This document shows positions 1,654-60,756 of a stretch of DNA of 64,000 bases, piece after piece (the first letter of the stretch is position 1; every line of letters starts with the position of its first letter). The DNA is from Chrysomallon squamiferum. Taxonomy: Eukaryota; Animalia; Mollusca. The notes under the pieces are model-generated. The model searched no databases, was not told the DNA's origin, and saw only the letters and a program-made list of their open reading frames with translations. The stretch covers positions 14,012,001 to 14,076,000 of the forward strand of contig CM022667.1 of the NCBI GenBank assembly GCA_012295275.1. The letters are read 5' to 3'. The translations under genes were made by a program, and so were the position numbers.

Positions 1654-1721
1654 ATGAGATTATTGTTCGTTCTCTGCATTATGTTTGGTAAAATTTAATT
1701 TCTCATTATTGTCAAATCTCT

Positions 1722-1782
<61 letters not shown>

Positions 1783-2248
1783 TGAATGTATGTCTTTATT
1801 TTTTTTTAAATGAATATTTATGGTCGTTTCAGTTTCATTTTCAGTAATATTATAGTTTAATGCTAATTCTTTCAAAATTTAATATTGAATGCTTTGACGT
1901 TTACTATAAAGGATGTAACAGAAATGTTTGGTAACTGTGTGTATGTGTGTGTGTGTGTGTGTGTGCGTGTGCGTTTTTGTTTTGTACGTATAACTGCGGA
2001 CAGATACCGGTACACGCACGCCTGACGCCAAATGTTCATATAACGTCAATAAGATTTTTACAAACTGGTAATTCTGTTACATGATATGTTCTAATGACAT
2101 TTTTGAAAAACTGCAGCTATAAAACATTGTTTATTTCAGTAACAATACACTCGGGATTTTGTAAATGTGATGTTCCGACAGTGAAAAATTGCATCCGTGA
2201 ATTCCTGAGGAAAAACACAGAACTGAAGAGAAAAGTGGAGAAATGCAG
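1654..2248 (+). pseudogene. Six-Cys GPI-type family, type A copy A1, exons 1-2 only (3' truncated)
   Basis: Exon 1 1654-1687 and exon 2 2140-2248 have intact GT/AG sites and encode MRLLFVLCIMFVTIHSGFCKCDVPTVKNCIREFLRKNTELKRKVEKC. Intron 2 homology to complete A copies stops near 2555, just before the exon 3 acceptor. Confidence 0.75.
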
Positions 2249-2677: not shown

Positions 2678-3050
2678 GTTCATGTTAATGCTGACGATTA
2701 TTAAGAATTAAGTGAACCCTACTATCAACTTGTTATAGAGAGGAAAATAAATACTACCTGCATTTCAAATGACAAGAACAGGCAATGGAAAGCAAGAGAA
2801 AAATCAGTTTTGTGAAGAATACTCTCTAAATAGTTTTTGAACATATAACAATTCAGACAAAAAAGAAGATTTTAAAACATTTTTGTATCTGTTATTGAAT
2901 TAATTTTATTGGATCAAGTGAACCTTAATACGAGCTTGCTATAGACAGATTTGGATGTGGATTCAAATAATATATTCGCGATCATCATTTTGAACAAATA
3001 GAATGAATCAACATTTAACAAAACGTCTGCGTCTAAACCTCAAGGACAGC
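2678..3050. pseudogene. Rearranged remnant of a family member: inverted intron-4 pieces fused to a frameshifted last exon
   Basis: 2678-2740 and 2912-2948 resemble 44972-45040 (intron 4 of minus-strand gene C). 2955-3001 is a plus-strand last exon with a 2-nt insertion (corrected: MWIQIIFAIIILNK*), followed by 3'UTR-like sequence. Repeated near 10915-11290. Confidence 0.6.
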
Positions 3051-5211: not shown

Positions 5212-6165
5212 ATGAAATTACTGTTCCCTCTCTGCATTCTGTCAGGTAAAATTTAATTTCTTATTATATTTAAATATTTTTCTTTCACAGACACATGCAT
5301 ACATACTGAAGAAAAATATTACTGTTTATGTGTTATTAGTACTATTATTATTAATTGTCATATACCTACTATATATAAAGACAAAACTGTAGACTTAGCA
5401 TGTTTCATTCAGCAGTAGTACATTAACGTATGCATTTATTTTTGAAACATGATTATTTACAGTTTTTAATTTCATTTTCTGTAATATTTTAGTTTAATGC
5501 TAATTCTTTTGCCATTCACCAGATATTCATTCATATAACGCCAATAAGAAAACTTAATAATAAACTGCTAATTCTGTTACATGGTATGTTGTAACGACAT
5601 TTTTGAATACATTGTTTATTTCAGTAATAATACACATGGCTTTTTGCGAATGTGATACTGACGCAGCGAAAACGTGCAGAATTGAATTCTTGCACGAAGT
5701 CGATAGTGCAAAGCGCAAAGCTGATAAATGCCGGTATGTTCGTACGAAAATAAGCTATATAGATTTTCTATTTTTTTTTTTTTTTTTTTTGTTGTTGTTG
5801 TTGTTGTTGTTGTTGTTCTTTTATTTATTTATTTATTTATTTATTATTATTTTTTACGTATCACTTATTTATTCAGTAATTAACTGATTAATATTGCTTT
5901 TTGTATTGTCAAGATTATATACATTTCCTTCATTCGCAATCACTGTCATAAACCAAACTGTTTTTACTTTAATTGAATATTTTTGCCATATAACTAATAA
6001 TAATAAATGTTCTATACTTCAGCATAGCACAGAAAATGATGAACTGTTTCATAGAAACCAACTGTTTTAATAACCAAACCAAGACTGGTGAAATACCAGC
6101 CCTGAAAAAAGTACTGAAGGAGAACTGCGGTACGTTTTCTTCACATGTTAAACACCAACGTTTTC

Positions 6166-6200
<35 letters not shown>

Positions 6201-6299
6201 AATAATATTAATAATAATAATTAAAATAGTAATAATAGTAATAACAATAATTAATACATCTACATATATATGTATATACATACATATATATGTATGTAT

Positions 6300-6333
<34 letters not shown>

Positions 6334-7009
6334 GAGCTATCTCTGTGTCTCTGTCTCTGTAATAATATTACAGGTGGTGTCATTGTCCCACGCGCTGCAC
6401 ATAGCAGAGGTAAGTGATTCTTAAGTACATTAATAGCAGGATTCTTGTTTAGAATTGTAATTATGTGTAAGTATGTAAAATTACTACTTTTAAAACGTTT
6501 AAACGTTGCTATTTCGTCTGCGGGAAAATCATCTCAATATGTACAATATATTCCCTAACGACTGTTTTGTTTCTCGAGACGAATCTGTAATAATAACAAT
6601 AATAATATGGCGATGTAATCTTAAGATCCAAATTTATTATCAGAAGATTAGATGTAACAAGGCAAATCATCACTTGTACTGTTATTGATTCACTTTATGT
6701 AAAAATACGGTCTACGCCGGTTTTTTTATTTTATTTCAGCTTCGAGCTTCTCATTTATATTTCTGTCGATCGATTAGAGAACTTCTATTATCATAAGATT
6801 AGTATTTCTCTGAACGCCTGTTAGATTTTTTGTTTCTGCACCAATCAGCTGAAATATGTGTGCATGCTAACAAATATATGTTAATATTCAAAATGAATTA
6901 CCAAATATTTGTCGATTCAATTTGTTTTACAGCTGAGCACCAGACACGCAGATCTCTGTTGTCGATGTGGATTGGAATAGTGATCTCGTTCGTGATTTTA
7001 AGCAAATAG
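5212..7009 (+). CDS. Six-Cys, predicted GPI-anchored surface protein, type B copy B1 (120 aa)
   Basis: Exons 5212-5245, 5625-5733, 6023-6129, 6374-6409, 6933-7009, all GT-AG and in frame: MKLLFPLCILSVIIHMAFCECDTDAAKTCRIEFLHEVDSAKRKADKCRIAQKMMNCFIETNCFNNQTKTGEIPALKKVLKENCGGVIVPRAAHSRAEHQTRRSLLSMWIGIVISFVILSK*. AATAAA at 7067. Confidence 0.88.
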
Positions 7010-7717: not shown

Positions 7718-7910
7718 CATACAAGTATTCATATAATTTCAGTAAGAATTTTATAAACTGCTAATTCTATTAAATGGCATGTTCTGATGATCGGGCACAG
7801 TTCTACTGACAATTTTGCAAAACTATAGTTCTGAATTTATTTCCATGCAACACATTTGTTTTTTTGTAAATGCGATAAAACAAACAGTTGAAGTAAGAGT
7901 GAATATCTTA
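7480..7910 (+). pseudogene. Degenerate intron 1 / exon 2 of an older family member (type D)
   Basis: Intron-1-like sequence (aaactgctaattctattaaatggcatgttct) leads to a dead acceptor and TTT TGT AAA TGC GAT AAA ACA AAC AGT TGA (FCKCDKTNS*). Also present near 16.0, 21.5, 28.8 and 33.9 kb. Confidence 0.55.
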
Positions 7911-9931: not shown

Positions 9932-9999
9932 ATGAGATTATTGTTCGTTCTCTGCATTATGTTTGGTAAAATTTAATTTCTCATTATTGTCAAATCTCT

Positions 10000-10040
<41 letters not shown>

Positions 10041-10498
10041 TGAATGTATGTCTTTATTTTTTTTTAAATGAATATTTATGGTCGTTTCAGTTTCATTTTC
10101 AGTAATATTATAGTTTAATGCTAATTCTTTCAAAATTTAATATTGAATGCTTTGACGTTTACTATAAAGGATGTAACAGAAATGTTTGGTAACTGTGTGT
10201 ATGTGTGTGTGTGTGTGCGTGCGTGTGCGTTTGTACGTATAACTGCGGACAGATACCGGTACACGCACGCACTGACGCCAAATGTTCATATAACGTCAAT
10301 AACATTTTTACAAACTGGTAATTCTGTTACATGATATGTTCTAATGACATTTTTGAAAAACTGCAGCTATAAAACATTGTTTATTTCAGTAACAATACAC
10401 TCGGGATTTTGTAAATGTGATGTTCCGACAGTGAAAAATTGCATCCGTGAATTCCTGAGGAAAAACACAGAACTGAAGAGAAAAGTGGAGAAATGCAG
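9932..10498 (+). pseudogene. Type A copy A2, exons 1-2 only; putative promoter region deleted
   Basis: Exons 9932-9965 and 10390-10498 encode the same sequence as A1 with the same 3' truncation. About 630 bp present upstream of A1 (approx. 805-1440, including the CRE-like motif) is missing at about 9712. Confidence 0.75.
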
Positions 10499-12095
10499 GT
10501 ATGTTCGTACATAAATAAACTATAGTAGGTTTTTATTTATGCTTGTATTTACTGATTGATTGATTGGTTGATTCATTCATTGATTTATTTATATATTTTT
10601 TATATATCATTTATTTATTTCGTAATTAATTGATTAGTATTGTTTTTGTAGATATTATACATATACTTATTATTTATATTTTGTTTACATATACATACAT
10701 ACATACATACATATATACACTTGAAAACAAAAATGTCATTCATTCGCACTCACCGTTATAAACCAAATGGTTTTCATTTTAACTCAATGTTTTTGTCGTA
10801 TATAAAAAAAATAAAAATAAATAAATAATAAATAAATAAATAATTAAAACTGAAACTAAACCTTAAATAAAATGTAATAAAATAAAATAAAATAAAATAA
10901 AATAAATATTTGGTGGTTCATGTTAATGCTGACGATTATTAAGAATTAAGTGAACCCTACTATCAACTTGTTATAGAGAGGAAAATAAATACTACCTGCA
11001 TTTCAAATGACAAGAACAGGCAATGGAAAGCAAGAGAAAAATCAGTTTTGTGAAGAATACTCTCTAAATAGTTTTTGAACATATAACAATTCAGACAAAA
11101 AAGAAGATTTTAAAACATTTTTGTATCTGTTATTGAATTAATTTTATTGGATCAAGTGAACCTTAATACGAGCTTGCTATAGACAGATTTGGATGTGGAT
11201 TCAAATAATATATTCGCGATCATCATTTTGAACAAATAGAATGAATCGACATTTAACAAAACGTCTGCGTCTAAACCTCAAGGACAGCTTTTGTTAATAA
11301 AAAAATAAAAAATAAATAAATAAATACATTAAATTAAATTAAATTTAAAAACAAATAATAATAATTAGCTTATTCTCTATGTTTAAAAATAAATTAATGC
11401 TACTTTTTATCAGCACTGGGTATAGTGTTATTTTAAAAAAGTTGTTACAAGACCTTTCATCATGTAAACTGCTGAATCATCCATTTTAGTCACTTGAAAT
11501 AGAACACGAGCATATGTGCAGTTTAAGGACTGTTGGAATAAAGGTGAATACTTTCATCAATCTATCTATTTATTTGTCTAGTTTTTTTTTCTGTCACATT
11601 TTCGTCTTCTTCTTCTTCTTCTTCTTCTTATTATTTTATCCTCCTTGAACATGATCAACACCTATCATGCTTGGTGCAGTAATCTCACAGAGTTGTTTGA
11701 TAATGTCAGAATCTATCGTTTTCAGACTCCGCCATCTTTGCTACAAGCTTCGTCCCACGCATATTTACTCAAAAATTCATTAAATAGTTGAATAAATGAG
11801 CTTTTACAATATGTCAGTAAAACATTAAAAATGTTCGAGCCTTTTCCAAGAAATAACTGGCTAAAATTTCATCCGGATTTCACAGCGCAGAAAGCAAATT
11901 AAATTACGTGTACAGAACTCGTTAGATTTCTTTGCACGTAACAATACCTGGTTTTCAGTAGACACAGCTCGGCCATGTCCGCTCAAAATATCGATCAGGC
12001 GCGTGAAAGCTTCGAAATAGCTCACAGTTTCAGAAATTCATAAAAAAAACAAAAACAGAAAACAAAATATCAAAACAAAAACAACAACAGATAAC

Positions 12096-13445: not shown

Positions 13446-15234
13446 ATGAAATTACTGTTCCCTCTCTGCATTCTGTCAGGTAAAATTTAATTTCTTATTA
13501 TATTTAAATATTTTTCTTTCACAGACACATGCATTACATACTGAAGAAAAAAATATTACTGTTTATGTGTTATTAGTACTATTATTATTAATTGTCATAT
13601 ACCTACTATATATAAAGACAAAACTGTAGACTTAGCATGTTTCATTCAGCAGTAGTACATTAACGTATGCATTTATTTTTTGAAACATGATTATTTACAG
13701 TTTTTAATTTCATTTTCTGTAATATTTTAGTTTAATGCTAATTCTTTGCCATTCACCAGATATTCATTCATATAACGCCAATAAGAAAACTTAATAATAA
13801 ACTGCTAATTCTGTTACATGGTATGTTGTAACGACATTTTTGAATACATTGTTTATTTCAGTAATAATACACATGGCTTTTTGCGAATGTGATACTGACG
13901 CAGCGAAAACGTGCAGAATTGAATTCTTGCACGAAGTCGATAGTGCAAAGCGCAAAGCTGATAAATGCCGGTATGTTCGTACGAAAATAAGCTATATAGA
14001 TTTTCTATTTTTTTTTTTTTTTTTTTTTTTTTTTTGTTGTTGTTGTTGTTCTTTTATTTATTTATTTATTTATTTATTATTATTTTTTACGTATCACTTA
14101 TTTATTCAGTAATTAACTGATTAATATTGCTTTTTGTATTGTCAAGATTATATACATTTCCTTCATTCGCAATCACTGTCATAAACCAAACTGTTTTTAC
14201 TTTAATTGAATATTTTTGCCATATAACTAATAATAATAAATGTTCTATACTTCAGCATAGCACAGAAAATGATGAGCTGTTTCATAGAAACCAACTGTTT
14301 TAATAACCAAACCAAGACTGGTGAAATACCAGCCCTGAAAAAAGTACTGAAGGAGAACTGCGGTACGTTTTCTTCACGTGTTAAACACCAACGTTTTCAC
14401 AACAACAACAACAACAATAATATTAATAATAATAATTAAAATAGTAATAATAGTAATAACAATAATTAATACATCTACATATATATGTATATACATATAT
14501 ATATATGTATGTATATACATACATATATATATATATATATATGAGCTATCTCTGTGTCTCTGTCTCTGTAATAATATTACAGGTGGTGTCATTGTCTCAC
14601 GCGCTGCACATAGCAGAGGTAAGTGATTCTTAAGTACATTAATAGCAGGATTCTTGTTTAGAATTGTAATTATGTGTAAGTATGTAAAATTTCTACTTTC
14701 ACTATTGAAACCAATAAAACGTTTAAACGTTGCTATTTCGTCTGCGGGAAAATCATCTCAATATGTACAATATATTCCCTAACGACTGTTTTGTTTCTCG
14801 AGACGAATCTGTAATAATAACAATAATAATATGGCGATGTAATCTTAAGATCCAAATTTATTATCAGAAGATTAGATGTAACAAGGCAAATCATCACTTG
14901 TACTGTTATTGATTCACTTTATGTAAAAATACCGTCTACGCCGGGTTTTTTTATTTTATTTCAGCTTCGAGCTTCTCATTTATATTTCTGTCGATCGATT
15001 AGAGAACTTCTATTATCATAAGATTAGTATTTTTCTGAACGCCTGTTAGATTTTTTGTTTCTGCACCAATCAGCTGAAATATGTGTGCATGCTAACAAAT
15101 ATATGTTAATATTCAAAATGAATTACCAAATATTTGTCGATTCAATTTGTTTTACAGCTGAGCACCAGACACGCAGATCTCTGTTGTCGATGTGGATTGG
15201 AATAGTGATCTCGTTCGTGATTTTAAGCAAATAG
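13446..15234 (+). CDS. Six-Cys GPI-type protein, type B copy B2 (120 aa)
   Basis: Exons 13446-13479, 13862-13970, 14256-14362, 14583-14618, 15158-15234. Differs from B1 by N->S (MMSC) and P->S (VIVSR). Confidence 0.88.
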
Positions 15235-18876: not shown

Positions 18877-19986
18877 ATGAGATTGTTGTTCGCTCTCTGC
18901 ATTATGTCTGGTAAAATTTAATTTCTCATCATTGTCAAATCTCTTTCTTTCCCACACACACACTCCCACACACACACAAACACACAGACTGAATGTATGT
19001 CTTTATTTTTTGTAAATGAATATTTATAGTCGTTTCAGTTTCATTTTCAGTAATATTATAGTTTAATGCTAATTCTTTCAAAATGTAATATTGAATGCTT
19101 TGACGTTTACTATAAAGGATGTAACAGAAATGTTTGGTAACTGTGTGTATGTGTGTGTGTGTGTGCGTGCGTGTGTGTTTGTACGTATAACTGCGGACAG
19201 ATACCGGTACACGCACGCACTGACGCCAAATGTTCATATAACGTCAATAAGATTTTTACAAACTGGTAATTCTGTTACATGATATGTTCTAATGACATTT
19301 TTGAAAAACTGCAGCTATAATACATTGTTTATTTCAGTAACAATACACTCGGGATTTTGTAAATGTGATGTTCCGACAGTGAAAAATTGCATCCGTGAAT
19401 TCCTGAGGAAAAACACAGAACTGAAGAGAAGACTGGAGAAATGCAGGTATGTTCGTACATAAATAAACTATAGTAGATTTTTATTTATGTTTGTATTTAC
19501 TGATTGACTGATTGGTTGATTGATTGATTGATTGATTTATATATTTTTTATATATCATTTATTTATTTCGTAATTAATTGATTAGTATTGTTTTTGTAGA
19601 TATTATACTTATTATTTATATTTTGTTCACATATATATATATATATATACACTTCAAAACAAAAATTTCATTCATTCGCAGTCACTGTTATAAACCAAAT
19701 TGTTTTCCTTTTAACTGAATGTTTTTGTCGTATAAATAATAATAGTAATAAATTTACTATACTTCAGCAATGTAAAGACTATGATAAGCTGTGCGAAAAA
19801 AACAGATTGTGTTGATTACCCTAGCAAGGTCTATACTATGGAACAACTGGAAAAAGCAGAGAAGGAAAACTGCAGTATGTTTACCTGTATACACAAGGAT
19901 TCTTCACATGTTAAACACGAACGTTTTCACAATAATCATAATAATAATAATAACAATAATAATAATAGTAATGATATATATATATG

Positions 19987-20046
<60 letters not shown>

Positions 20047-20636
20047 ATGTATGATACGTTAGTAATACATTAGTAATAATATTACAGTTACTAATAAGGA
20101 TTCGAGTCACGAACATAGCAAAGGTAAGTAATTTTTAAGCAGGGTTCTTGTTTATGTATGCTTAAGTATGTAAAATTACTACTTTCAATTAGTATATTCC
20201 CTAACGATTTTTTTGTTTGTCGAGACGAATCTGTAATAATAATAATAATAATAATATGGCGATGTAATCTTAAGGTCCAAATTTATTATCAGAAGATTAG
20301 ATGTAACAAGGAAAATCATCACTTGTACTATTACTGATTCACTTTATGTAAAAATACGTCTACCCCGTTTTTTATTTCAACTTCGAATCTTGTAATTTTT
20401 ATTTCTGTCGATCGATTAGAGTCATCCTGATAACACTGGATTAGCCTGTTAGGTTCTTGTTTCTGCACTAGTCAGTTGAAGTGTGTGTACTTAGTAACAA
20501 ATATATGTTAATACTGAAAATGCACTACGAAATATTCATTGAATCAATTTGTTTTTCAGGTGAGCACCAGACACGTAGATCTCTGTTCTCGATCTTGATT
20601 GGAATAATGATCTGTTTCATCATTTTAAGCAACTAG
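18877..20636 (+). CDS. Six-Cys GPI-type protein, type A copy A3 (120 aa)
   Basis: Exons 18877-18910, 19338-19446, 19768-19874, 20088-20123, 20560-20636: MRLLFALCIMSVTIHSGFCKCDVPTVKNCIREFLRKNTELKRRLEKCSNVKTMISCAKKTDCVDYPSKVYTMEQLEKAEKENCITNKDSSHEHSKGEHQTRRSLFSILIGIMICFIILSN*. Confidence 0.88.
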
Positions 20637-24228: not shown

Positions 24229-24296
24229 ATGAGATTATTGTTCGTTCTCTGCATTATGTCTGGTAAAATTTAATTTCTCATTATTGTCAAATCTCT

Positions 24297-24357
<61 letters not shown>

Positions 24358-24817
24358 TGAATGTATGTCTTTATTTTTTTTTAAATGAATATTTATGGTC
24401 GTTTCAGTTTCATTTTCAGTAATATTATAGTTTAATGCTAATTCTTTCAAAATTTAATATTGAATGCTTTGACGTTTACTATAAAGGATGTAACAGAAAT
24501 GTTTGGTAACTGTGTGTATGTGTGTGTGTGTGTGTGCGTGCGTGTGCGTTTGTACGTATAACTGCGGACAGATACCGGTACACGCACGCACTGACGCCAA
24601 ATGTTCATATAACGTCAATAAGATTTTTACAAACTGGTAATTCTGTTACATGATATGTTCTAATGACATTTTTGAAAAACTGCAGCTATAAAACATTGTT
24701 TATTTCAGTAACAATACACTCGGGATTTTGTAAATGTGATGTTCCGACAGTGAAAAATTGCATCCGTGAATTCCTGAGGAAAAACACAGAACTGAAGAGA
24801 AAAGTGGAGAAATGCAG
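24229..24817 (+). pseudogene. Type A copy A4, exons 1-2 followed by the assembly gap (probably truncated like A1/A2)
   Basis: Exons 24229-24262 and 24709-24817 are intact. Sequence after the gap resumes in B-upstream DNA equivalent to about 4207. Confidence 0.65.
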
Positions 24818-25004: not shown

Positions 25005-25204
25005 NNNNNNNNNNNNNNNNNNNNNNNNNNNNNNNNNNNNNNNNNNNNNNNNNNNNNNNNNNNNNNNNNNNNNNNNNNNNNNNNNNNNNNNNNNNNNNNN
25101 NNNNNNNNNNNNNNNNNNNNNNNNNNNNNNNNNNNNNNNNNNNNNNNNNNNNNNNNNNNNNNNNNNNNNNNNNNNNNNNNNNNNNNNNNNNNNNNNNNNN
25201 NNNN
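25005..25204. other. Assembly gap (200 N)
   Basis: Run of exactly 200 n, a placeholder length. Confidence 0.99.
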
Positions 25205-26197: not shown

Positions 26198-27146
26198 ATG
26201 AAATTACTGTTCCCTCTCTGCATTCTGTCAGGTAAAATTTAAATTCTTATTATATTTAAATATTTTTCTTTCACAGTAACACGCATACATACTGAAGAAA
26301 AATATTACTGTTTATGTGTTATTAGTACTATTATTATTAATTGTCATATACCTACTATATATAAAGACAAAACTGTAGACTTAGCATGTTTCATTCAGCA
26401 GTAGTACATTAACGTATGCATTTATTTTTGAAACATGATTATTTACAGTTTTTAATTTCATTTTCTGTAATATTTTAGTTTAATGCTAATTCTTTGCCAT
26501 TCACCAGATATTCATTCATATAACGCCAATAAGAAAACTTAATAATAAACTGCTAATTCTGTTACATGGTATGTTGTAACGACATTTTTGAATACATTGT
26601 TTATTTCAGTAATAATACACATGGCTTTTTGCGAATGTGATACTGACGCAGCGAAAACGTGCAGAATTGAATTCTTGCACGAAGTCGATAGTGCAAAGCG
26701 CAAAGCTGATAAATGCCGGTATGTTCGTACGAAAATAAGCTATATAGATTTTCTATTTTTTTTTTTTTTTTTTTTGTTGTTGTTGTTGTTGTTGTTGTTA
26801 TTTTTTTATTTATTTATTTATTTATTATTATTTTTTACGTATCACTTATTTATTCAGTAATTAACTGATTAATATTGCTTTTTGTATTGTCAAGATTATA
26901 TACATTTCCTTCATTCGCAATCACTGTCATAAACCAAACTGTTTTTACTTTAATTGAATATTTTTGCCATATAACTAATAATAATAAATGTTCTATACTT
27001 CAGCATAGCACAGAAAATGATGAGCTGTTTGATAGAAACCAACTGTTTTAATAACCAAACCAAGACTGGTGAAATACCAGCCCTGAAAAAAGTACTGAAG
27101 GAGAACTGCGGTACGTTTTCTTCACGTGTTAAACACCAACGTTTTC

Positions 27147-27181
<35 letters not shown>

Positions 27182-27994
27182 AATATTAATAATAATAATT
27201 AAAATAGTAATAATAGTAATAACAATAATTAATACATCTACATATATATGTATATACATATATATATACGTATGTATATACATGCATATATATATATATA
27301 TATGAGCTATCTCTGTGTCTCTGTCTCTGTAATAATATTACAGGTGGTGTCATTGTCCCACGCGCTGCACATAGCAGAGGTAAGTGATTCTTAAGTACAT
27401 TAATAGCAGGATTCTTGTTTAGAATTGTAATTATGTGTAAGTATGTAAAATTTCTACTTTCACTATTGAAACCAATAAAACGTTTAAACGTTGCTATTTC
27501 GTCTGCGGGAAAATCATCTCAATATGTACAATATATTCCCTAACGACTGTTTTGTTTCTCGAGACGAATCTGTAATAATAACAATAATAATATGGCGATG
27601 TAATCTTAAGATCCAAATTTATTATCAGAAGATTAGATGTAACAAGGCAAATCATCACTTGTACTGTTATTGATTCACTTTATGTAAAAATACGGTCTAC
27701 GCCGGTTTTTTTATTTTATTTCAGCTTCGAGCTTCTCATTTATATTTCTGTCGATCGATTAGAGAACTTCTATTATCATAAGATTAGTATTTCTCTGAAC
27801 GCCTGTTAGATTTTTTGTTTCTGCACCAATCAGCTGAAATATGTGTGCATGCTAACAAATATATGTTAATATTCAAAATGAATTACCAAATATTTGTCGA
27901 TTCAATTTGTTTTACAGCTGAGCACCAGACACGCAGATCTCTGTTGTCGATGTGGATTGGAATAGTGATCTCGTTCGTGATTTTAAGCAAATAG
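26198..27994 (+). CDS. Six-Cys GPI-type protein, type B copy B3 (120 aa)
   Basis: Exons 26198-26231, 26610-26718, 27004-27110, 27344-27379, 27918-27994. Carries the MMSCLIETNC variant. Confidence 0.88.
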
Positions 27995-31332: not shown

Positions 31333-32438
31333 ATGAGATTGTTGTTCGCTCTCTGCATTATGTCTGGTAAAATTTAATTTCTCATCATTGTCAAATCTCT
31401 TTCTTTCCCACACACACTCCCACACACACACAAACACACAGACTGAATGTATGTCTTTATTTTTTGTAAATGAATATTTATAGTCGTTTCAGTTTCATTT
31501 TCAGTAATATTATAGTTTAATGCTAATTCTTTCAAAATGTAATATTGAATGCTTTGACGTTTACTATAAAGGATGTAACAGAAATGTTTGGTAACTGTGT
31601 GTATGTGTGTGTGTGTGTGCGCGTGCGTGTGTGTTTGTACGTATAACTGCGGACAGATACCGGTACACGCACGCACTGACGCCAAATGTTCATATAACGT
31701 CAATAAGATTTTTACAAACTGGTAATTCTGTTACATGATATGTTCTAATGACATTTTTGAAAAACTGCAGCTATAATACATTGTTTATTTCAGTAACAAT
31801 ACACTCGGGATTTTGTAAATGTGATGTTCCGACAGTGAAAAATTGCATCCGTGAATTCCTGAGGAAAAACACAGAACTGAAGAGAAGACTGGAGAAATGC
31901 AGGTATGTTCGTACATAAATAAACTATAGTAGATTTTTATTTATGTTTGTATTTACTGATTGACTGATTGGTTGATTGATTGATTGATTGATTTATATAT
32001 TTTTTATATATCATTTATTTATTTCGTAATTAATTGATTAGTATTGTTTTTGTAGATATTATACTTATTATTTATATTTTGTTCACATATATATATATAT
32101 ACACTTCAAAACAAAAATGTCATTCATTCGCAGTCACTGTTATAAACCAAATTGTTTTCCTTTTAACTGAATGTTTTTGTTGTATAAATAATAATAGTAA
32201 TAAATTTACTATACTTCAGCAATGTAAAGACTATGATAAGCTGTGCGAAAAAAACAGATTGTGTTTATTACCCTAGCAAGGTCTATACTATGGAACAACT
32301 GGAAAAAGCAGAGAAGGAAAACTGCAGTATGTTTACCTGTATACACAAGGATTCTTCACATGTTAAACACGAACTTTTTCACAATAATCATAATCATAAT
32401 AATGACAATAATAATAATAGTAATGATATATATATATG

Positions 32439-32525
<87 letters not shown>

Positions 32526-33128
32526 GTATGATACGTTAGTAATACATTACTAATAATATTACAGTTACTAATAAGGATTCGAGTGATGAACATAGCAAAG
32601 GTAAGTAATTTTTAAGCAGGGTTCTTGTTTATGTATGCTTAAGTATGTAAAATTGCTACTTTCAATTACTATATTCCCTAACGATTGTTTTGCTTGTCGA
32701 GACGAATCTGTAATAATAATAATAATAATCATAATAATAATAATAATATGGCGATGTAATCTTAAGGTCCAAATTTATTATCAGAAGATTAGATGTAACA
32801 AGGAAAATCATCACGTGTATTGTTACTGATTCACTTTATGTAAAAATACGTCTACGCCGTTTTTTATTTCAACTTCGAATCTTGTAATTTTTATTTCTGT
32901 CGATTGATTAGAGTCATCCTGATAACACTGGATTAGCCTGTTAGATTCTTGTTTCTGCACTAGTCAGTTGAAGTGTGTGTACTTAGTAACAAATATATGT
33001 TAATACTGAAAATGCACTACGAAATATTTATTGAATCAATTTGTTTTTCAGGTGAGCACCAGACACGTAGATCTCTGTTCTCGATCTTGATTGGAATAAT
33101 GATCTGTTTCATCATTTTAAGCAACTAG
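31333..33128 (+). CDS. Six-Cys GPI-type protein, type A copy A5 (120 aa)
   Basis: Exons 31333-31366, 31794-31902, 32220-32326, 32565-32600, 33052-33128. Differs from A3 by D->Y (CVYYP) and H->D (SSDEH). Confidence 0.88.
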
Positions 33129-36588: not shown

Positions 36589-36656
36589 ATGAGATTATTG
36601 TTCGCTCTCTGCATTATGTCTGGTAAAATTTAATTTCTCATTATTGTCAAATCTCT

Positions 36657-36697
<41 letters not shown>

Positions 36698-37655
36698 ACA
36701 CTGAACGTATGTCTTTATTTTTTGTAAATGAATATTTATAGTCGTTTCAGTTTCATTTTCAGTAATATTATAGTTTAATGCTAATTCTTTCAAAATTTAA
36801 TATTGAATGCTTTGACGTTTACTATAAAGGATGTAACAGAAATGTTTGGTAACTGTGTGTATGTGTGTGTGTGTGTGCGTGCGTGTGTGTTTCTACGTAT
36901 AACTGCGGACAGATACCGGTACACGCACGCACTGACGCCAAATGTTCATATAACGTCAATAAGATTTTTACAAACTGGTAATTCTGTTACATGATATGTT
37001 CTAATGACATTTTTGAAAAACTGCAGCTATAATACCTTGTTTATTTCAGTAACAATACACTTGGGTTTTTGTAAATGTGATCTTCCGTCAGTGAAAAATT
37101 GCATCCGTGAATTCCTGAGGAAAAACACAGAACTGAAGAGAAAAGTGGAGAAATGCAGGTATGTTCGTACATAAATAAACTATAGTAGGTTTTTATTTAT
37201 GCTTGTATTTACTGATTGATTGATTGGTTGATTCATTCATTGATTTATTTATATATTTTTTATATATCATTTATTGATTTCGTAATTAATTGATTAGTAT
37301 TGTTTTTGTAGATATTATACATATACTTATTATTTATATTTTGTTTACATATACATACATACATACATACATATATACACTTGAAAACAAAAATGTCATT
37401 CATTCGCACTCACCGTTATAAACCAAATGGTTTTCATTTTAACTGAATGTTTTTGTCGTATAAATAATAATAATACATTTACTATACTTCAGCAATGTAA
37501 AGACTATAATAAGTTGTGCGAAAAAACACGGTTGTGCTGATTACCCTAGCAAGTTGTATAGTAAGGAAAGATTGAAAGAAATAGAGAAGGAAAACTGCAG
37601 TATGTTTACCTGTATACACAAGGATTCTTCACATGTTAAACACGAACGTTTTCAC

Positions 37656-37714
<59 letters not shown>

Positions 37715-38394
37715 TAACACTAATAATAATAATAGTAATAATAATAATAATAATAGTAATGATATATATATATGAGCTCTCTCTCTCTCTCTCTCTCACT
37801 CATGTATGATACGCTAGTAATACATTAGTGATAATATTACAGTGCCTAATAATGATCTGAGTGCCGCACGTAGCAAAGGTAAGTGATTTTTAAGCAGGGT
37901 TCTTGTTTAGAATTTTAATTATGCTTAAGTATGTAAAATTACTACTTTCAATTACTATATTCCCAAAACGATTGTTTTGCTTTTCGAGACGAATCTGTAA
38001 TAATAATAATAATATGGCGATGTAATCTTAAGGTCCAAATTTATTATCAAAAGATTAGATGTAACAAGGAAAATCATCACTTGTACTGTTACTGATTCAC
38101 TTTATGTAAAAATATGTCTCTGCCGTTTTTTATTTCAACTTCGAATCTTGTAATTTTTATTTCTGTCGATCGATTAGAGTCATCCTGATAACACTGGATT
38201 AGCCTGTTAGGTTCTTGTTTCTGCACTAGTCAGTTGAAGTGTGTGTACTTAGTAACAAATATATGTTAATACTGAAAATACACTACCAAATATTTATTGA
38301 ATCAATTTGTTTTTCAGGTGAGCACCAGACACGCAGATCTCTGTTCTCGATCTGGATTGGAATAATGATCTGTTTCATCATTTTAAGCAACTAG
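36589..38394 (+). CDS. Six-Cys GPI-type protein, type A copy A6 (120 aa)
   Basis: Exons 36589-36622, 37050-37158, 37493-37599, 37843-37878, 38318-38394: MRLLFALCIMSVTIHLGFCKCDLPSVKNCIREFLRKNTELKRKVEKCSNVKTIISCAKKHGCADYPSKLYSKERLKEIEKENCMPNNDLSAARSKGEHQTRRSLFSIWIGIMICFIILSN*. Confidence 0.88.
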
Positions 38395-40595: not shown

Positions 40596-40663
40596 ATGAG
40601 ATTATTGTTCGCTCTCTGCATGATGTCTGGTAAAATTTAATTTCTCATTATTGTCAAATCTCT

Positions 40664-40730
<67 letters not shown>

Positions 40731-41669
40731 AGACTGAATGTATGTCTTTATTTTTTTTAAATGAATATTTATAGTCGTTTGAGTTTCATTTTCAGTAATA
40801 TTATAGTTTAATGCTAATTCTTTCAAAATTTAATATTGAATGCTTTGACGTTTACTATAAAGGATGTAACAGAAATGTTTGGTAACTCTGTGTATGTGTG
40901 TGTGTGTGTGCGTGCGTGCGTGTGTGTTTGTACGTATAACTGCACTGACGCCAAATGTTCATATAACGTCAATAAGATTTTTACAAACTGGTAATTCTGT
41001 TACATGATATGTTCTAACAACATTTTTGAAAAACTGCAGCTATAATACCTTGTTTATTTCAGTAACAATACACTTGGGTTTTTGTAAATGTGATATTCCG
41101 ACAGTGAGAGAGTGCCTCCGTGAATTTCTGAGGAAAGACACACAACTGAAGAGAAGACTGGAGAAATGCAGGTATGTTCGTACATAAATAAACTATAGTA
41201 GATTTTTATTTATGTTTGTATTTACTGATTGATTGATTGGTTGATTCATTCATTGATTTATTTATATATATTTTTATATATCATTTATTTATTTCGTAAT
41301 TAATTGATTAGTATTGTTTTTGTAGATATTATACATATACTTATTATTTATATTTTGTTTACATATACATACATACATACACACATATATACACTTGAAA
41401 ACAAAAATGTCATTCATTCGCACTCACCGTTATAAACCAAATGGTTTTCATTTTAACTGAATGTTTTTGTCGTATAAATAATAATAATAAATTTACTATA
41501 CTTCAGCAATGTAAAGTCTATGATAAGTTGTGCGAAAAAACACGGTTGTGCTCATTACCCTAGCAAGTTCTATAGTATGGAAAGATTGGAAGAAATAGAG
41601 AAGGGAAACTGCAGTATGTTTACCTGTATACACAAGGATTCTTCACATGTTAAACACGAACGTTTTCAC

Positions 41670-41760
<91 letters not shown>

Positions 41761-41779
41761 TATATATATATATATATCA

Positions 41780-41852
<73 letters not shown>

Positions 41853-42456
41853 ATGTATGATTCGCTAGTAATACATTAGTGATAATATTACAGTGCCTAT
41901 TAATGATCTGAGTGCCGCACGTAGCAAAGGTAAGTGATTTTTAAGCAGGGTTCTTGTTTAGAATTTTAATTATGCTTAAGTATGTAAAATTACTACTTTC
42001 AGTTACTATATTCCCTAACTATTGTTTTGTTTCTGGAGATGAATCTGTAATAATAATAATAATAATATGGCGATGTAATCTTAAGATCCAAATTTATTAT
42101 CAGAAGATTAGATGTAACAAGGAAAATCATCACGTGTACTATTATTGATTCACTTTATGTAAAAATATCGTTTTTTATTTCAACTTCGAATCTTCTCATT
42201 TTTATTTCTGTCGATCGATTAGGGGTCCTTCTGATATCATAAGATTAGTATTTCTCTGTACGCCTATTAGGTTCTTGGTTCTGCACTAATCAGCTGAAGG
42301 ATGTTTGCTCAGTAACAAGTATCTGTTAATATTCAAAAATGCATTACCAAGTATTTATTGATTTATTTTGTATTTTCAGGTGAGCACCAGACACGCAGAT
42401 CAGTGTTTTCGATGTGGATTGGAATAATGATCTCGTTCGTCATTTTAAACAATTAG
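40596..42456 (+). CDS. Six-Cys GPI-type protein, type A copy A7 (120 aa)
   Basis: Exons 40596-40629, 41063-41171, 41507-41613, 41894-41929, 42380-42456: MRLLFALCMMSVTIHLGFCKCDIPTVRECLREFLRKDTQLKRRLEKCSNVKSMISCAKKHGCAHYPSKFYSMERLEEIEKGNCMPINDLSAARSKGEHQTRRSVFSMWIGIMISFVILNN*. Confidence 0.88.
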
Positions 42457-42880
42457 ACGAAATCGACATTCAACAAAACATCTCTGACGATGCATCACAG
42501 ACATTTATCTTTAATAAACAGTAAAAAATATAAAATGAAAATAATGATAAATATGAGTAAATACTTCATTCTCCATTGTTATGAAATTGAAGATATATCC
42601 TGTTTAAAAATAAATTAATGTTGCTGATATCAGCCTTTGTTATTATGTATTTTATAGATTTTCTTTAGTTTCTTGATTTAAAGAAGTTATATTATTATTA
42701 GTAGTAGTATTAGTAGTAGTAATAGTAGTAGTAGTATCATTATCATAATTATTTTTATTATCATTCATTATCATCATTATTATTAGCATTCTTCTTCATT
42801 ATTATTGTTATTATTATTATTATTGTTATTATTATTATTATTGTTATTATTATTATTATTATTATTTCAACGTTTGAAAC

Positions 42881-43489: not shown

Positions 43490-44440
43490 ATAGGTACCTC
43501 TAGTTACTGTGTGTATGCTGGAAGCAGACGAATATACTGCTTGATGCAAAGTCCTAAAACACGTATGGCACTTGGGAACATATTAAACAACAGCATATGT
43601 TTGTTATCAAACACTGTGTTATATCCCAGATGTTCTGGCAATGATTTTATCTTGGAAGGAAACTGCAGAGACAGTTTTGTACTTCTAGCACGCACAGTTT
43701 CACGTGCATCGATGTACAGACTATCTGCAGTTATAGTACTAAATGCTCCAAGAGAGTCTAAGACCCTGGTTTTGTAGAGGATTCAGCATTTGTAAGTAAC
43801 ACCTACCAGAGAGAGGCCCCATACACAGTGCAAGCGTTTACATCTTATCGAAGACCTATAAAGTCGGAGCATGGCCTTTCGGTTTGCTCCCCATTTAATA
43901 CTGCCAATAACATTTAAAAGAGTGAAGGAGTTTAAGGCCTTTAGGATGCAGTACAAAGGGTAACTTCCTGTCAAATATAACGTTCACAAATTTGGCCTCT
44001 TCCACAATAGGACAGAATATGTCCAGAAACATATTTATATGGAGACCTGTTTTCTAGCAGATATAAATACTGACTGTCTTTGTCTTTTGTAATCTAAAGC
44101 TGTTTTCAGTTGCCCATTACTGAAGTTTATTCAGACCAATTTGAAGCTGTCATTCGATAATACTTACGTTGAACGATCTTTAGCAAATCTGAAAATCGTC
44201 GACATAAGGTTTTAATTAAAAAAAAAAAAAAAAAACATTATGCACAGGTTGCACCCATTTCTTGCGGGTTGGAATCTGAAAATGTAGATCCAACACTTTA
44301 AAAGATCTGTCTTAAAAAACATCTTTAAAAATAGGAAGGCCACCTCATAGATCATGAGCCTTGGAGTCAATAAGCCCATACTTCCATATAGTGTCGTAAG
44401 CTTTATTCAAATCAGAAAACACTGAAACTAGGTGTCGACT
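43490..44440 (-). mobile_element. Decayed non-LTR retrotransposon (LINE) ORF2 fragment
   Basis: Minus-strand pieces HLVSVFSDLNKAYDTIWKYG (RT motif FFDLEKAYDTTW type), YVDDFQIC, and WGANRKAMLRLYRSSIR, with many stops and frameshifts. Confidence 0.8.
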
Positions 44441-44859: not shown

Positions 44860-45288
44860 CTATTTCTTTAAGATAACGAGCACGATCATTATTCCAATCC
44901 ACATCGAGAAGAGACATATATGTACCTGGTGTTCACCTGCAAAACAAACATTAAATCAGTTAATATACAGCTGTTCATGTTAATGCTGACGCTTGCTGAC
45001 GATCAAGTGAACTTTAATATCAGCTTGCTATAGATAGAAAAGCCAGCACTACAGGCATGTCTAGGATAGACAATGGATATAAAGAGAAATATTAGACGTG
45101 TGATGTACCAGAATCTCTGCAACCCAACGTAATCAAGGTGGTATTGGCGTTCAGTATAACATGTTGAAAATTTCAAGAGACAGCAGTGTTTAATATACAA
45201 TTACCATAACTATGAGGATAACAAAACCAGTTTTAGAAAGAATCAAAGATGTTTTAAAAATATGTCGAGACATAATAATTGCTTTAAA

Positions 45289-45319
<31 letters not shown>

Positions 45320-46892
45320 GACTGTTGGTCGTAAATGCAGTTATACTAATTTTGAGATGATTTATGCTGTCCATGTGAAAATTAATTTAAATAAATGTGA
45401 TCTAGTAGAGAAAAGGCTGGAAACCAGAGCTTTAACCAGTCGATTGAAATTGAAATTAGGAAACATCGAATGCAACATTTATAACCCAACTGTTCCGATT
45501 ATGCACAAGGGAAATCGCACAAGCAGATACAACAAGAGCAGCAACAGCAGCAACAACAACAACAACAACAACAAAAACAACAATATTAATAATAATAATA
45601 TGTTTTTCAATACAAAATTATTTTTATAAACAGGTTGACAGTTTCTCGATTTTACTATTATGTCATCATTTATCATTATTAAGATTCTTGAAAGACAAGA
45701 ATAATTAGGAAGTAAACTTAATATACCTAGCTGACTTGTATATACAAGCAATGATAAGCTTTAAACCTATTCATAGACAACACTGTAACTTTTCATACAT
45801 AAAAACTATTCTGCAGCTAATACATGTAAAACATACCTTTACTCGACATCATAGAGATTTCGTCACCTCCTGCAATATTATTAGAAATTTATTACATATA
45901 TACATACTTGCAAACTCGCACACTCACGCACACAGTAATAGTATCATTAAACATATTACAGTTATCAAAGGCTGGTGTTCTGGTCAAATGTTAGGCTAAA
46001 CGTCTGGATTTTCTTGAAAGTCGTCTGCTATGAATTTAAACATTTTCATAGCTGAATTTTATTAAAGTTTTCATAACAATCTTCCCACAGAGACACTGAC
46101 AGAAGAAGTCACTGTGTACTGTTATGCTGTGTAAAATTGAAAGGTTTGCCTTATGGTATATTAATTTAAAGACTTTTGCTTTTTAAGCAGAAGTCTCTTT
46201 TGCAACATTTGTCTTGGAATGGAATAGCTATTTAATATTTTGCGCAAAATCATGTGGATTCGTATACTAAATCAGTGGAAACACTGTGTATATGTACAAA
46301 CATACCGCAGACACTAAACACGAAATGTTTCAGTTGTTTAAATTTATTTTTCGTCCTTTCATCATCTTCATCTTCAGAACAGGATGCTTTTACTAAACAG
46401 ACGAACAATTTATTTGAGTAACTGAAAGATAAGACTTATTTTCATTATTTATTTAACAACAGAAACATCAAGTTCATGAAATATAATTTTGGATTAAAGT
46501 AAAAACAAATAAGTGTGCTAATGTACGTATGAATGTATGTATTTGTATATGGTTTTATGTGTTTGTGTATGAACATTTTCATGATTTGCGAGCGTGTGAA
46601 AACGAACACCCCCCACACACACACACATACACACACACCTACGCAACAATAATTAAGTAAAATAAGCAAAATTTATCTGGAAGGTCTGAGATCAAGGATG
46701 ACTCTAATTTCAGGATCTTCTGGTTTTCCGGACAAAGTCTTAACAATTTTATTTAAACTATAATGCACAATCGTATCTAAATTTAAAGCCATTTTTTCTT
46801 TTTTTTTAATTTCCCTAATGCTGAACGGACATATTCTGGAACGTGTACGATAAAATAACAGAAAATATATAAATAATTTTTGAATTGGCAAA

Positions 46893-46923
<31 letters not shown>

Positions 46924-47513
46924 AAATAAATAAATAGAAGTAATTAAAAGTATTAAATTGAGTGATTTTGGTGCAAACTTACAAACATCGATTTGAGATG
47001 TGTAAAGAATTTGTATTTACATCCTGTTGAAAAGATTCCTGGCACCTGTTTACAGTTTCTTCATCACAATTTCCACAAAAAGCCAAGTTTATTGTTACTG
47101 AAATTGGCAAAAATGACGCTAGAACTGTGGAGTCCAGAAAATTCGATAAGCATATTTATATCATCTAATTAGAATTGTTACTGATATTATCAACTGAATG
47201 TGTGTGTGTGTGTGTGTTTTAACTGTACGTCAACACATTTGATACAAATGATAAGAATCAGGATACAATTATATTACAATCATTGAAATTATAAACTTAA
47301 CAGTTAGAATTAGAATTTTATATTGCATAAACTGGAAAGTAGATTTCATTAGTCTGTTGAGAATAATTGCTCGCTATATCACCACAGTACTTTGATTCTG
47401 CTGTTTGATAAAATATAATGTCACGGAAATGTAACTGTGTGTGTTTATGTTTAAAAGTAATACAAGAATAATACTTTACCTGAGAAAATACAGAGAGCGA
47501 ACAGATACTTCAT
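44860..47513 (-). CDS. Six-Cys GPI-type protein, divergent inverted type C (124 aa)
   Basis: Minus-strand exons 47513-47480, 47097-46983, 46421-46306, 45869-45837, 44936-44860, with the same phases 1-2-1-1: MKYLFALCIFSVTINLAFCGNCDEETVNRCQESFQQDVNTNSLHISNRCFYSNKLFVCLVKASCSEDEDDERTKNKFKQLKHFVFSVCGGDEISMMSSKGEHQVHICLFSMWIGIMIVLVILKK*. Confidence 0.87.

Positions 47514-50286: not shown

Positions 50287-60756
<10,470 letters not shown>

Follow-up and report, generated by a model that had tools for sequence, protein, structure and literature searches.

The window, the whole 64,000-nucleotide stretch analysed here, was AT-rich DNA with many microsatellites. Self-comparison of the window showed that its first 48 kb was spanned by a tandem array, which contained eight complete five-exon genes, three partial copies, and relics (Table 1). 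In the seven plus-strand genes A3, A5, A6, A7, B1, B2, and B3, exon lengths were 34, 109, 107, 36, and 77 nt and the product was 120 residues long, compared with 124 in gene C. GT/AG junctions and open frames were kept in all eight complete genes. The interval 37493-37878 comprised exon 3, intron 3, and exon 4 of gene A6.

Table 1. Positions of the family members, the parts of gene A6, and the assembly gap within the window.
Feature	Positions	Strand	Description
A6 exon 1	36589..36622	+	34 nt; begins signal peptide (GT donor, hydropathy)
A6 exon 2	37050..37158	+	109 nt; signal end and Cys21, Cys29, Cys47; predicted helices 23-36 and 38-46
A6 exon 3	37493..37599	+	107 nt; Cys56, Cys62, Cys83; predicted helices 50-60 and 72-80
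A6 intron 3	37600..37842	+	Carries AAT and CT microsatellites
A6 exon 4	37843..37878	+	36 nt; linker; invariant Ser94, candidate GPI attachment site
A6 exon 5	38318..38394	+	77 nt including stop; polar spacer, then hydrophobic C-terminal tail
Gene A3	18877..20636	+	Complete, five exons
Gene A5	31333..33128	+	Complete; near-identical to A3
Gene A7	40596..42456	+	Complete; exon 2/intron 2 mosaic, 3′ end divergent
Gene B1	5212..7009	+	Complete
Gene B2	13446..15234	+	Complete
Gene B3	26198..27994	+	Complete
Gene C	44860..47513	-	Complete, inverted, divergent, acidic (124 aa)
A1	1654..2248	+	Exons 1-2 present, exons 3-5 missing
A2	9932..10498	+	Exons 1-2 present, exons 3-5 missing
A4	24229..24817	+	Exons 1-2, then assembly gap
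Assembly gap	25005..25204	.	200 N, within array

Several further observations were made within the array. A1 and A2 ended inside an A-rich repeat, just short of the exon 3 acceptor. Their exon 2 and that of the B genes ended in one and the same phase, and a splice from it to exon 3 of B1 or B2 would therefore stay in frame. After these two copies, at approximately 2918-3001 and 11192-11436, lay the degenerate remains of an exon 5 and 3′ UTR from a further member of the family, matching the B exon 5 region at about 70%. Five spacers, at 7848, 16078, 21490, 28778, and 33952, held short remnants similar to the beginning of exon 2 (83% over 29 nt). A GC-richer insert at approximately 150-630 had equivalents upstream of other A genes and was copied with each unit; its end resembled a pogo/Tigger-type inverted repeat. 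The assembly gap was flanked by blocks that were 95-97% alike. The sequences on either side of it could represent different haplotypes, and the gap may conceal further copies. Outside the array, a 13-exon SLC6 (PF00209) transporter gene was found on the minus strand at 50290-60756. Its best match was a glycine-transporter-like protein of Gigantopelta aegis (70% over the aligned exons), followed by Haliotis rubra (63%), Patella vulgata (60%), and eight other lophotrochozoan proteins (40-59%). This ranking placed the host among the gastropods, likely with the neomphalids or vetigastropods. Units of about 21 nt were tandemly repeated in an intron of this gene (54351-55194). A 167-nt element occurred twice in opposite orientations, 97% alike, at 44273-44439 and 50896-51062, flanking gene C.

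The family protein (120-124 aa) had the order signal, six-cysteine domain, linker, and hydrophobic tail. Hydropathy showed a hydrophobic N-terminus and a C-terminal hydrophobic tail that extended to the stop. Seven cysteines were present from residue 19 onward, and signal cleavage near residue 19 would leave six. These six were spaced as C-x7-C-x17-C-x8-C-x5-C-x20-C and were invariant in all eight complete genes, in agreement with the earlier note on this DNA, which had described six cysteines that never change. The codons of Cys21, Cys29, and Cys47 and the three cysteine codons of exon 3 were identical at every base, the silent third position included, in all seven A and B genes. Inspection and hydropathy of five of the eight genes showed the features of a GPI signal, namely an N-terminal signal and a hydrophobic C-terminus without a cytoplasmic tail. 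Such a signal is also expected to have one small residue where the anchor attaches and another two positions further on; Ser94 was invariant, and residue 96 was Gly or Ala. These features, judged by eye and from hydropathy, suggested that the product is likely GPI-anchored on the cell surface. An Arg-Arg dibasic site, which could serve for shedding, was seen just ahead of the hydrophobic tail in exon 5 of seven of the eight genes, C being the exception. Net charge was +5 to +9 in the A genes and −3 in gene C. AlphaFold was run on two 35-residue exon pieces and gave two helices per exon at a pLDDT of about 65. A four-helix, three-disulfide domain is thus only weakly predicted, because it was modelled from separate exon pieces at this confidence. 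No repeat relationship was detectable between exon 2 and exon 3.

No homologue was found with queries that were all single-exon pieces of 35-59 residues. A word-index search with the exon 2 alignment gave none among 61 candidates. HMMER with pieces other than exon 3 against 1.84 billion representatives returned one match, a 438-aa repeat protein over 20 residues, which was judged to be chance. Eight exon pieces of the family gave just two sub-threshold Pfam matches, both to one piece. Exon profiles against PDB gave chance matches only (E 0.22-5.7), 35-position profiles being weak, and exon 2 gave no usable match in the ESM Atlas. In metagenome contigs, 1 of 556 stretches matched; this match fell on the final helix encoded by a hydrolase-like gene of GC-rich bacterial DNA and was attributed to chance. 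No description of such a family was found in the literature. In passages of the genome paper on the scaly-foot snail, 2415 novel genes are mentioned but this family is not described (PMC7142155); the supplements of that paper, like the Gigantopelta ones, could hold it. The snail six-cysteine family seemingly is undescribed.

Divergence was compared between exons and introns, with microsatellites and gap edges masked in the A3/A6 counts. Between A3 and A6, exons 1-5 differed at 1/34, 6/109, 18/107, 9/36, and 2/77 positions, and introns 1-4 at 5/305, 7/189, 2/85, and 9/337. Exons 3 and 4 together (27/143) exceeded the introns (23/916) with p 2.5e-12. With a lighter mask the introns differed at 46/1129, and the same comparison gave p 2e-9. 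The statement of the earlier note that the introns were nearly identical was therefore correct. In A6 intron 3, which lay between exons diverged by 17% and 25%, the first 50 columns showed 0 differences from A3. In the A6/A7 pair, the peak was at exon 2 (11/109 vs 9/591, p 4e-5). Between A6 and B1, exons 2-4 differed by 37-47%, and the aligned columns of introns 1-3 differed at 73/386. Across the A/B split, exons 2-4 differed by 37-53% compared with about 19% of alignable intron columns; the intron figure counted alignable parts only and was lowered by this. Global intron alignments of A with B and with C overstate intron divergence. A circular-shift test that kept the clustering was also performed. 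For A3/A6, 16 of 1801 positions of the exon mask reached the observed count (p ~0.01). For A6/A7, this number was 15 of 1207 without the divergent 3′ end and 463 of 1801 with it. These results showed that exons 2-4 accumulated changes at 3.5-5 times the rate of the introns, and that the signal and tail exons diverged at the intron rate. The excess of coding over intron divergence was not seen in the near-identical pairs, whose exon divergence was no higher than intron divergence (B pairs, 2/363 vs 4-6/1129; A3/A5, 3/363 vs 13/916).

The earlier note had argued from an excess of amino-acid-changing codons. Its counting was exact. Exon 3 of A3 and A6 differed by the 11 listed amino acid changes and two silent codons (S55 and L75), B1-B3 differed by N/S55, F/L57, and P/S89, and A3 and A5 differed by D/Y64 and H/D91. 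The 11:2 ratio was not a replacement excess, however. Non-synonymous sites made up about 78-81% of the sites in these exon 3 codons, outnumbering silent sites by about four to one, and 11:2 was therefore the neutral expectation. The corresponding dN/dS was 0.97 at kappa 1 and 1.22 at kappa 2 (Fisher p 0.61-0.77; binomial p 0.43). The differences within B1-B3 and between A3 and A5 likewise failed as evidence of selection, since five non-synonymous codons out of five had a chance probability of 0.27. This meant that a raw replacement-to-silent codon count misleads in AT-rich genes, and that introns are a usable yardstick.

Codon likelihood models were custom-written and were checked by one simulation. 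In the joint model, mature codons 20-96 and introns 1-3 shared one tree, and dN/dS and the exon/intron rate were the free ratios. Gene C was excluded from the seven-gene version because it was too distant. The fully neutral model was rejected for the seven genes (p 1e-18). Once the exon rate was allowed to vary, the mature part gave a dN/dS of 2.38 (p 0.005), and 2.44 when double-base changes were also allowed (p 0.010). The four A genes gave 2.67-3.14 (p 0.014-0.042) and, with double hits, 2.63 (p 0.050); the A6/B1 pair alone gave p 0.116. Signal and tail codons showed no excess over introns (p 0.77 and 0.50). The exon/intron silent rate in the mature exons was 1.6-1.8 for the seven genes (p 0.08-0.27) and 1.0-2.3 for the A genes. 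It was not significantly above 1 in either case (p 0.08-0.94 over both sets of estimates).

With codons only, dN/dS in the mature part of the seven genes was 1.98 (p 0.025). When data were simulated under neutrality, with the six cysteines held fixed and the tree of exon 2 swapped, 1 of 128 runs reached the observed statistic. By region, with several partitions and uncorrected p values, dN/dS was 0.45 in the signal, 0.59 in the tail, 1.27 in the linker (p 0.65), 3.4 in mature exon 2 (p 0.059), and 3.6 in the interval between cysteines 5 and 6 (p 0.041). Exon 3 alone gave 1.96 (p 0.15), which was not significantly above 1, and a separate joint-model analysis of it gave p 0.21-0.27. The earlier note had placed the selection between the fourth and sixth cysteines and in the stalk. 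This location was only partly right. The interval between cysteines 5 and 6 agreed with it, but the excess extended to exon 2 as well as exon 3, and the linker was not significantly above 1.

Site models on the eight genes, in which seven ambiguous columns near Cys83 of gene C were set to missing, favoured M8 over M7, the comparison proposed in the earlier note, with p 0.0003. Tree length differed threefold between signal/tail and domain, which probably makes this and other p values of whole-gene site models too small. Part of a study on this problem describes how uneven silent rates inflate whole-gene selection tests (10.1101/174839). For the mature part only, M2a vs M1a gave p 0.027. When five genes were split into three partitions, each with a tree of its own, p was 0.016 (0.027 with double hits), and A5, A6, A7, and B3, which lie to the right of the gap, gave p 0.0006. 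The four A genes alone did not pass (M2a vs M1a, p 0.09-0.41). Sites 23, 28, 69, 71, 74, and 89 exceeded 0.9 in both eight-gene runs by naive Bayes, and codons 23, 64, 69, and 91 each held three amino acids among the four A genes. The changes in exon 2 were almost all conservative (BLOSUM 1.60 vs −0.31 under neutrality, p 1e-4), whereas those in exon 3 were as radical as chance. Since the exon 2 changes were far more conservative than neutral, the fold was under constraint. Constraint and acceleration act together on the domain. CpG transitions accounted for 3 of the 43 variable mature sites, by which CpG decay was ruled out as a cause. In summary, a mean dN/dS of 2-2.4 in the mature part of the seven genes was statistically supported at a moderate level, with a sampling of about four independent lineages and one very long branch. 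Diversifying selection on a constrained scaffold, as proposed earlier, thus received moderate support from the codon models and none from the 11:2 count. We consider it quite likely that selection acts on the domain.

The copies also exchanged segments. Among informative site pairs, 12 of 253 were incompatible, and A7 switched partner over four sites at 37143-37202; a permutation test for recombination on adjacent sites gave p 0.72. Gene conversion was present and likely sharpens the contrast between exons and introns. A7, the last A copy, is an edge copy escaping homogenisation. From intron 4 to the 3′ UTR (42000-42700) it was 10-17% different from other A genes, and the 3′ UTRs of A6 and B1 differed by 5%. 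Conversion could have produced the whole contrast if it had homogenised introns, signal, and tail around exons 2-4 that are older and drift under weak constraint, save for the cysteines. We regard this explanation as unlikely, though the mosaicism that it needs is real, and intron 4, exon 5, and the 3′ UTR differed by only 5-19% between A and B genes. The linker fits it well with its dN/dS of 1.27. The dS of A3/A6 exon 3 by simple counting, 0.17-0.20, was above the intron divergence of 0.025, and exons 3 and 4 of the A genes alone do not separate selection from an exon-wide rise in rate, as a dN/dS of 5 and a whole exon 4.8 times faster reached the same likelihood. However, a mature dN/dS of 1 was still rejected with the exon rate free (p 0.005-0.05). 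It is also unlikely that random tracts would stop at three exon borders, given the unchanged start of intron 3 and the result of the A3/A6 shift test, and selection itself would be needed to hold the exons unconverted.

Local hypermutation of the domain exons, lifting silent and replacement change alike, appeared very improbable. The six cysteine codons, base-identical in the seven A and B genes, are not what a mutational hot zone predicts, although base-identical cysteine codons have been read as part of the hypermutation model for conotoxins. The silent rate estimate of 1.6-1.8 and the two- or three-base differences in several codons are in its favour, but the rise in rate was not significant once dN/dS was free, and the signal persisted with double-base changes allowed. 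Such a process was proposed for conotoxin mature exons, for which passages of the source give raised Ds and Dn (PMC3862624). There is just as little likelihood that the copies are decaying, or that two haplotypes were joined at the gap, with changes that are neutral or mildly harmful polymorphisms. All eight complete genes kept their frames, GT/AG sites, and six cysteines, and the changes in exon 2 were conservative, even though the array also holds A1 and A2 without exons 3-5, and relic exons in its spacers. Blocks across the gap differed by 0.5-2.3%, as alleles might, and A3/A5 and B2/B3 may therefore be alleles. However, blocks on the same side also differed by 0.9-1.8%, and A5, A6, A7, and B3, all on one side of the gap, carried the signal alone.

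It is probable that the fast divergence of exons 2-4 is due to positive selection, which would drive amino acid change in a predicted four-helix, six-cysteine domain. In the array, copies were seen to arise, break, and exchange segments, and cysteines, signal, and tail were kept while the domain exons ran ahead. Unequal crossing-over would make and break the copies. Gene conversion would keep introns, signal, and tail alike, and selection would keep the binding exons apart. Three disulfides would hold the fold. The domain, likely displayed on the cell surface, would have a binding partner that changes, for example a protein of a microbe, a parasite, or a gamete, or else the paralogues may be pushed toward different partners. 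By analogy with Biomphalaria clusters as described in part of one study (PMC7494358), our first guess, at slightly under even chances, is that the partner belongs to host defence or microbe recognition. Gamete recognition is a second and rather unlikely guess, by analogy with abalone lysin in passages of another (PMC2704960). A more specific and improbable idea is a variable surface-receptor system of neomphalid or vetigastropod snails that sorts symbionts or pathogens from self. It would use a compact four-helix disulfide scaffold with its halves on separate exons, diversified by selection and reshuffled by conversion, with exons 1-2 of A1 and A2 spliced to a downstream B exon 3. Invertebrate immune, self-recognition, and fertilisation systems were previously found via orphan surface proteins under diversifying selection. 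With its likely GPI anchor and its basic (A) and acidic (C) members, this small family, from a snail group that includes symbiont-bearing vent species, offers a tangible candidate for a part of this kind.

The family was compared with known systems. Neuritin (PF15056) and nematode DUF19 (PF01579) are six-cysteine helical domains. Both have a signal followed by this domain, and neuritin has a GPI tail. The likeness to the signal and the six-cysteine, predicted helical domain of the snail family is a lead only. The cysteine spacing given above sets the snail family apart, and the eight exon pieces gave no Pfam match to either. In abalone sperm lysin and sp18, replacement change reportedly exceeds intron change (Metz et al. 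1998), as in the snail family, and the gastropod group is related. Lysin and sp18 are helical, soluble acrosomal proteins that diverge mainly between species. The exon profiles gave no PDB match to them (E 0.22-5.7, with weak 35-position profiles).

Conotoxin superfamilies share more of the pattern. As passages of one study describe them, they are gastropod multigene families with invariant cysteines, change mostly in the mature-region exons, a conserved signal exon, and conserved introns with simple repeats (PMC3862624). In contrast, the snail family has about 75 mature residues predicted to be helical, no pro-region, and a hydrophobic C-terminal tail. The host is not a cone snail, there was no hint of venom, and exon pieces scanned against Pfam and PDB gave no match to conotoxins. 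Mytilus MgCRP-I, in the portion of the source that covers it, is likewise a lineage-restricted mollusc family with six invariant cysteines, a hypervariable mature region, duplication, and positive selection (PMC4558851). Its members are short secreted pre-pro-peptides (PMC4558851), whereas the snail proteins are larger and have a membrane tail. What was matched in both systems was copy gain and loss, invariant cysteines, a conserved signal, and a moderately supported excess in mature dN/dS (1.98-2.4, p 0.005-0.025, seven genes). Both systems release a short soluble peptide from a pre-pro-precursor, which the snail family did not match, as the first mature cysteine directly follows the signal and the C-terminal tail is hydrophobic. 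The evolutionary pattern is already familiar from conotoxins and mussel cysteine-rich peptides, and the protein itself is neither. For function, the Biomphalaria PTC2 cluster, or Guadeloupe Resistance Complex, was compared. It is a snail cluster of divergent cell-surface proteins, which are predicted here, with gene gain and loss (PMC7494358). According to passages of that study, its proteins are single-pass transmembrane, diverse between alleles, and linked to parasite resistance by mapping (PMC7494358). The snail array is set apart from this description by a tail that ends at the stop and by divergence between paralogues. By analogy, PTC2/GRC may be the closest model for what the family does.
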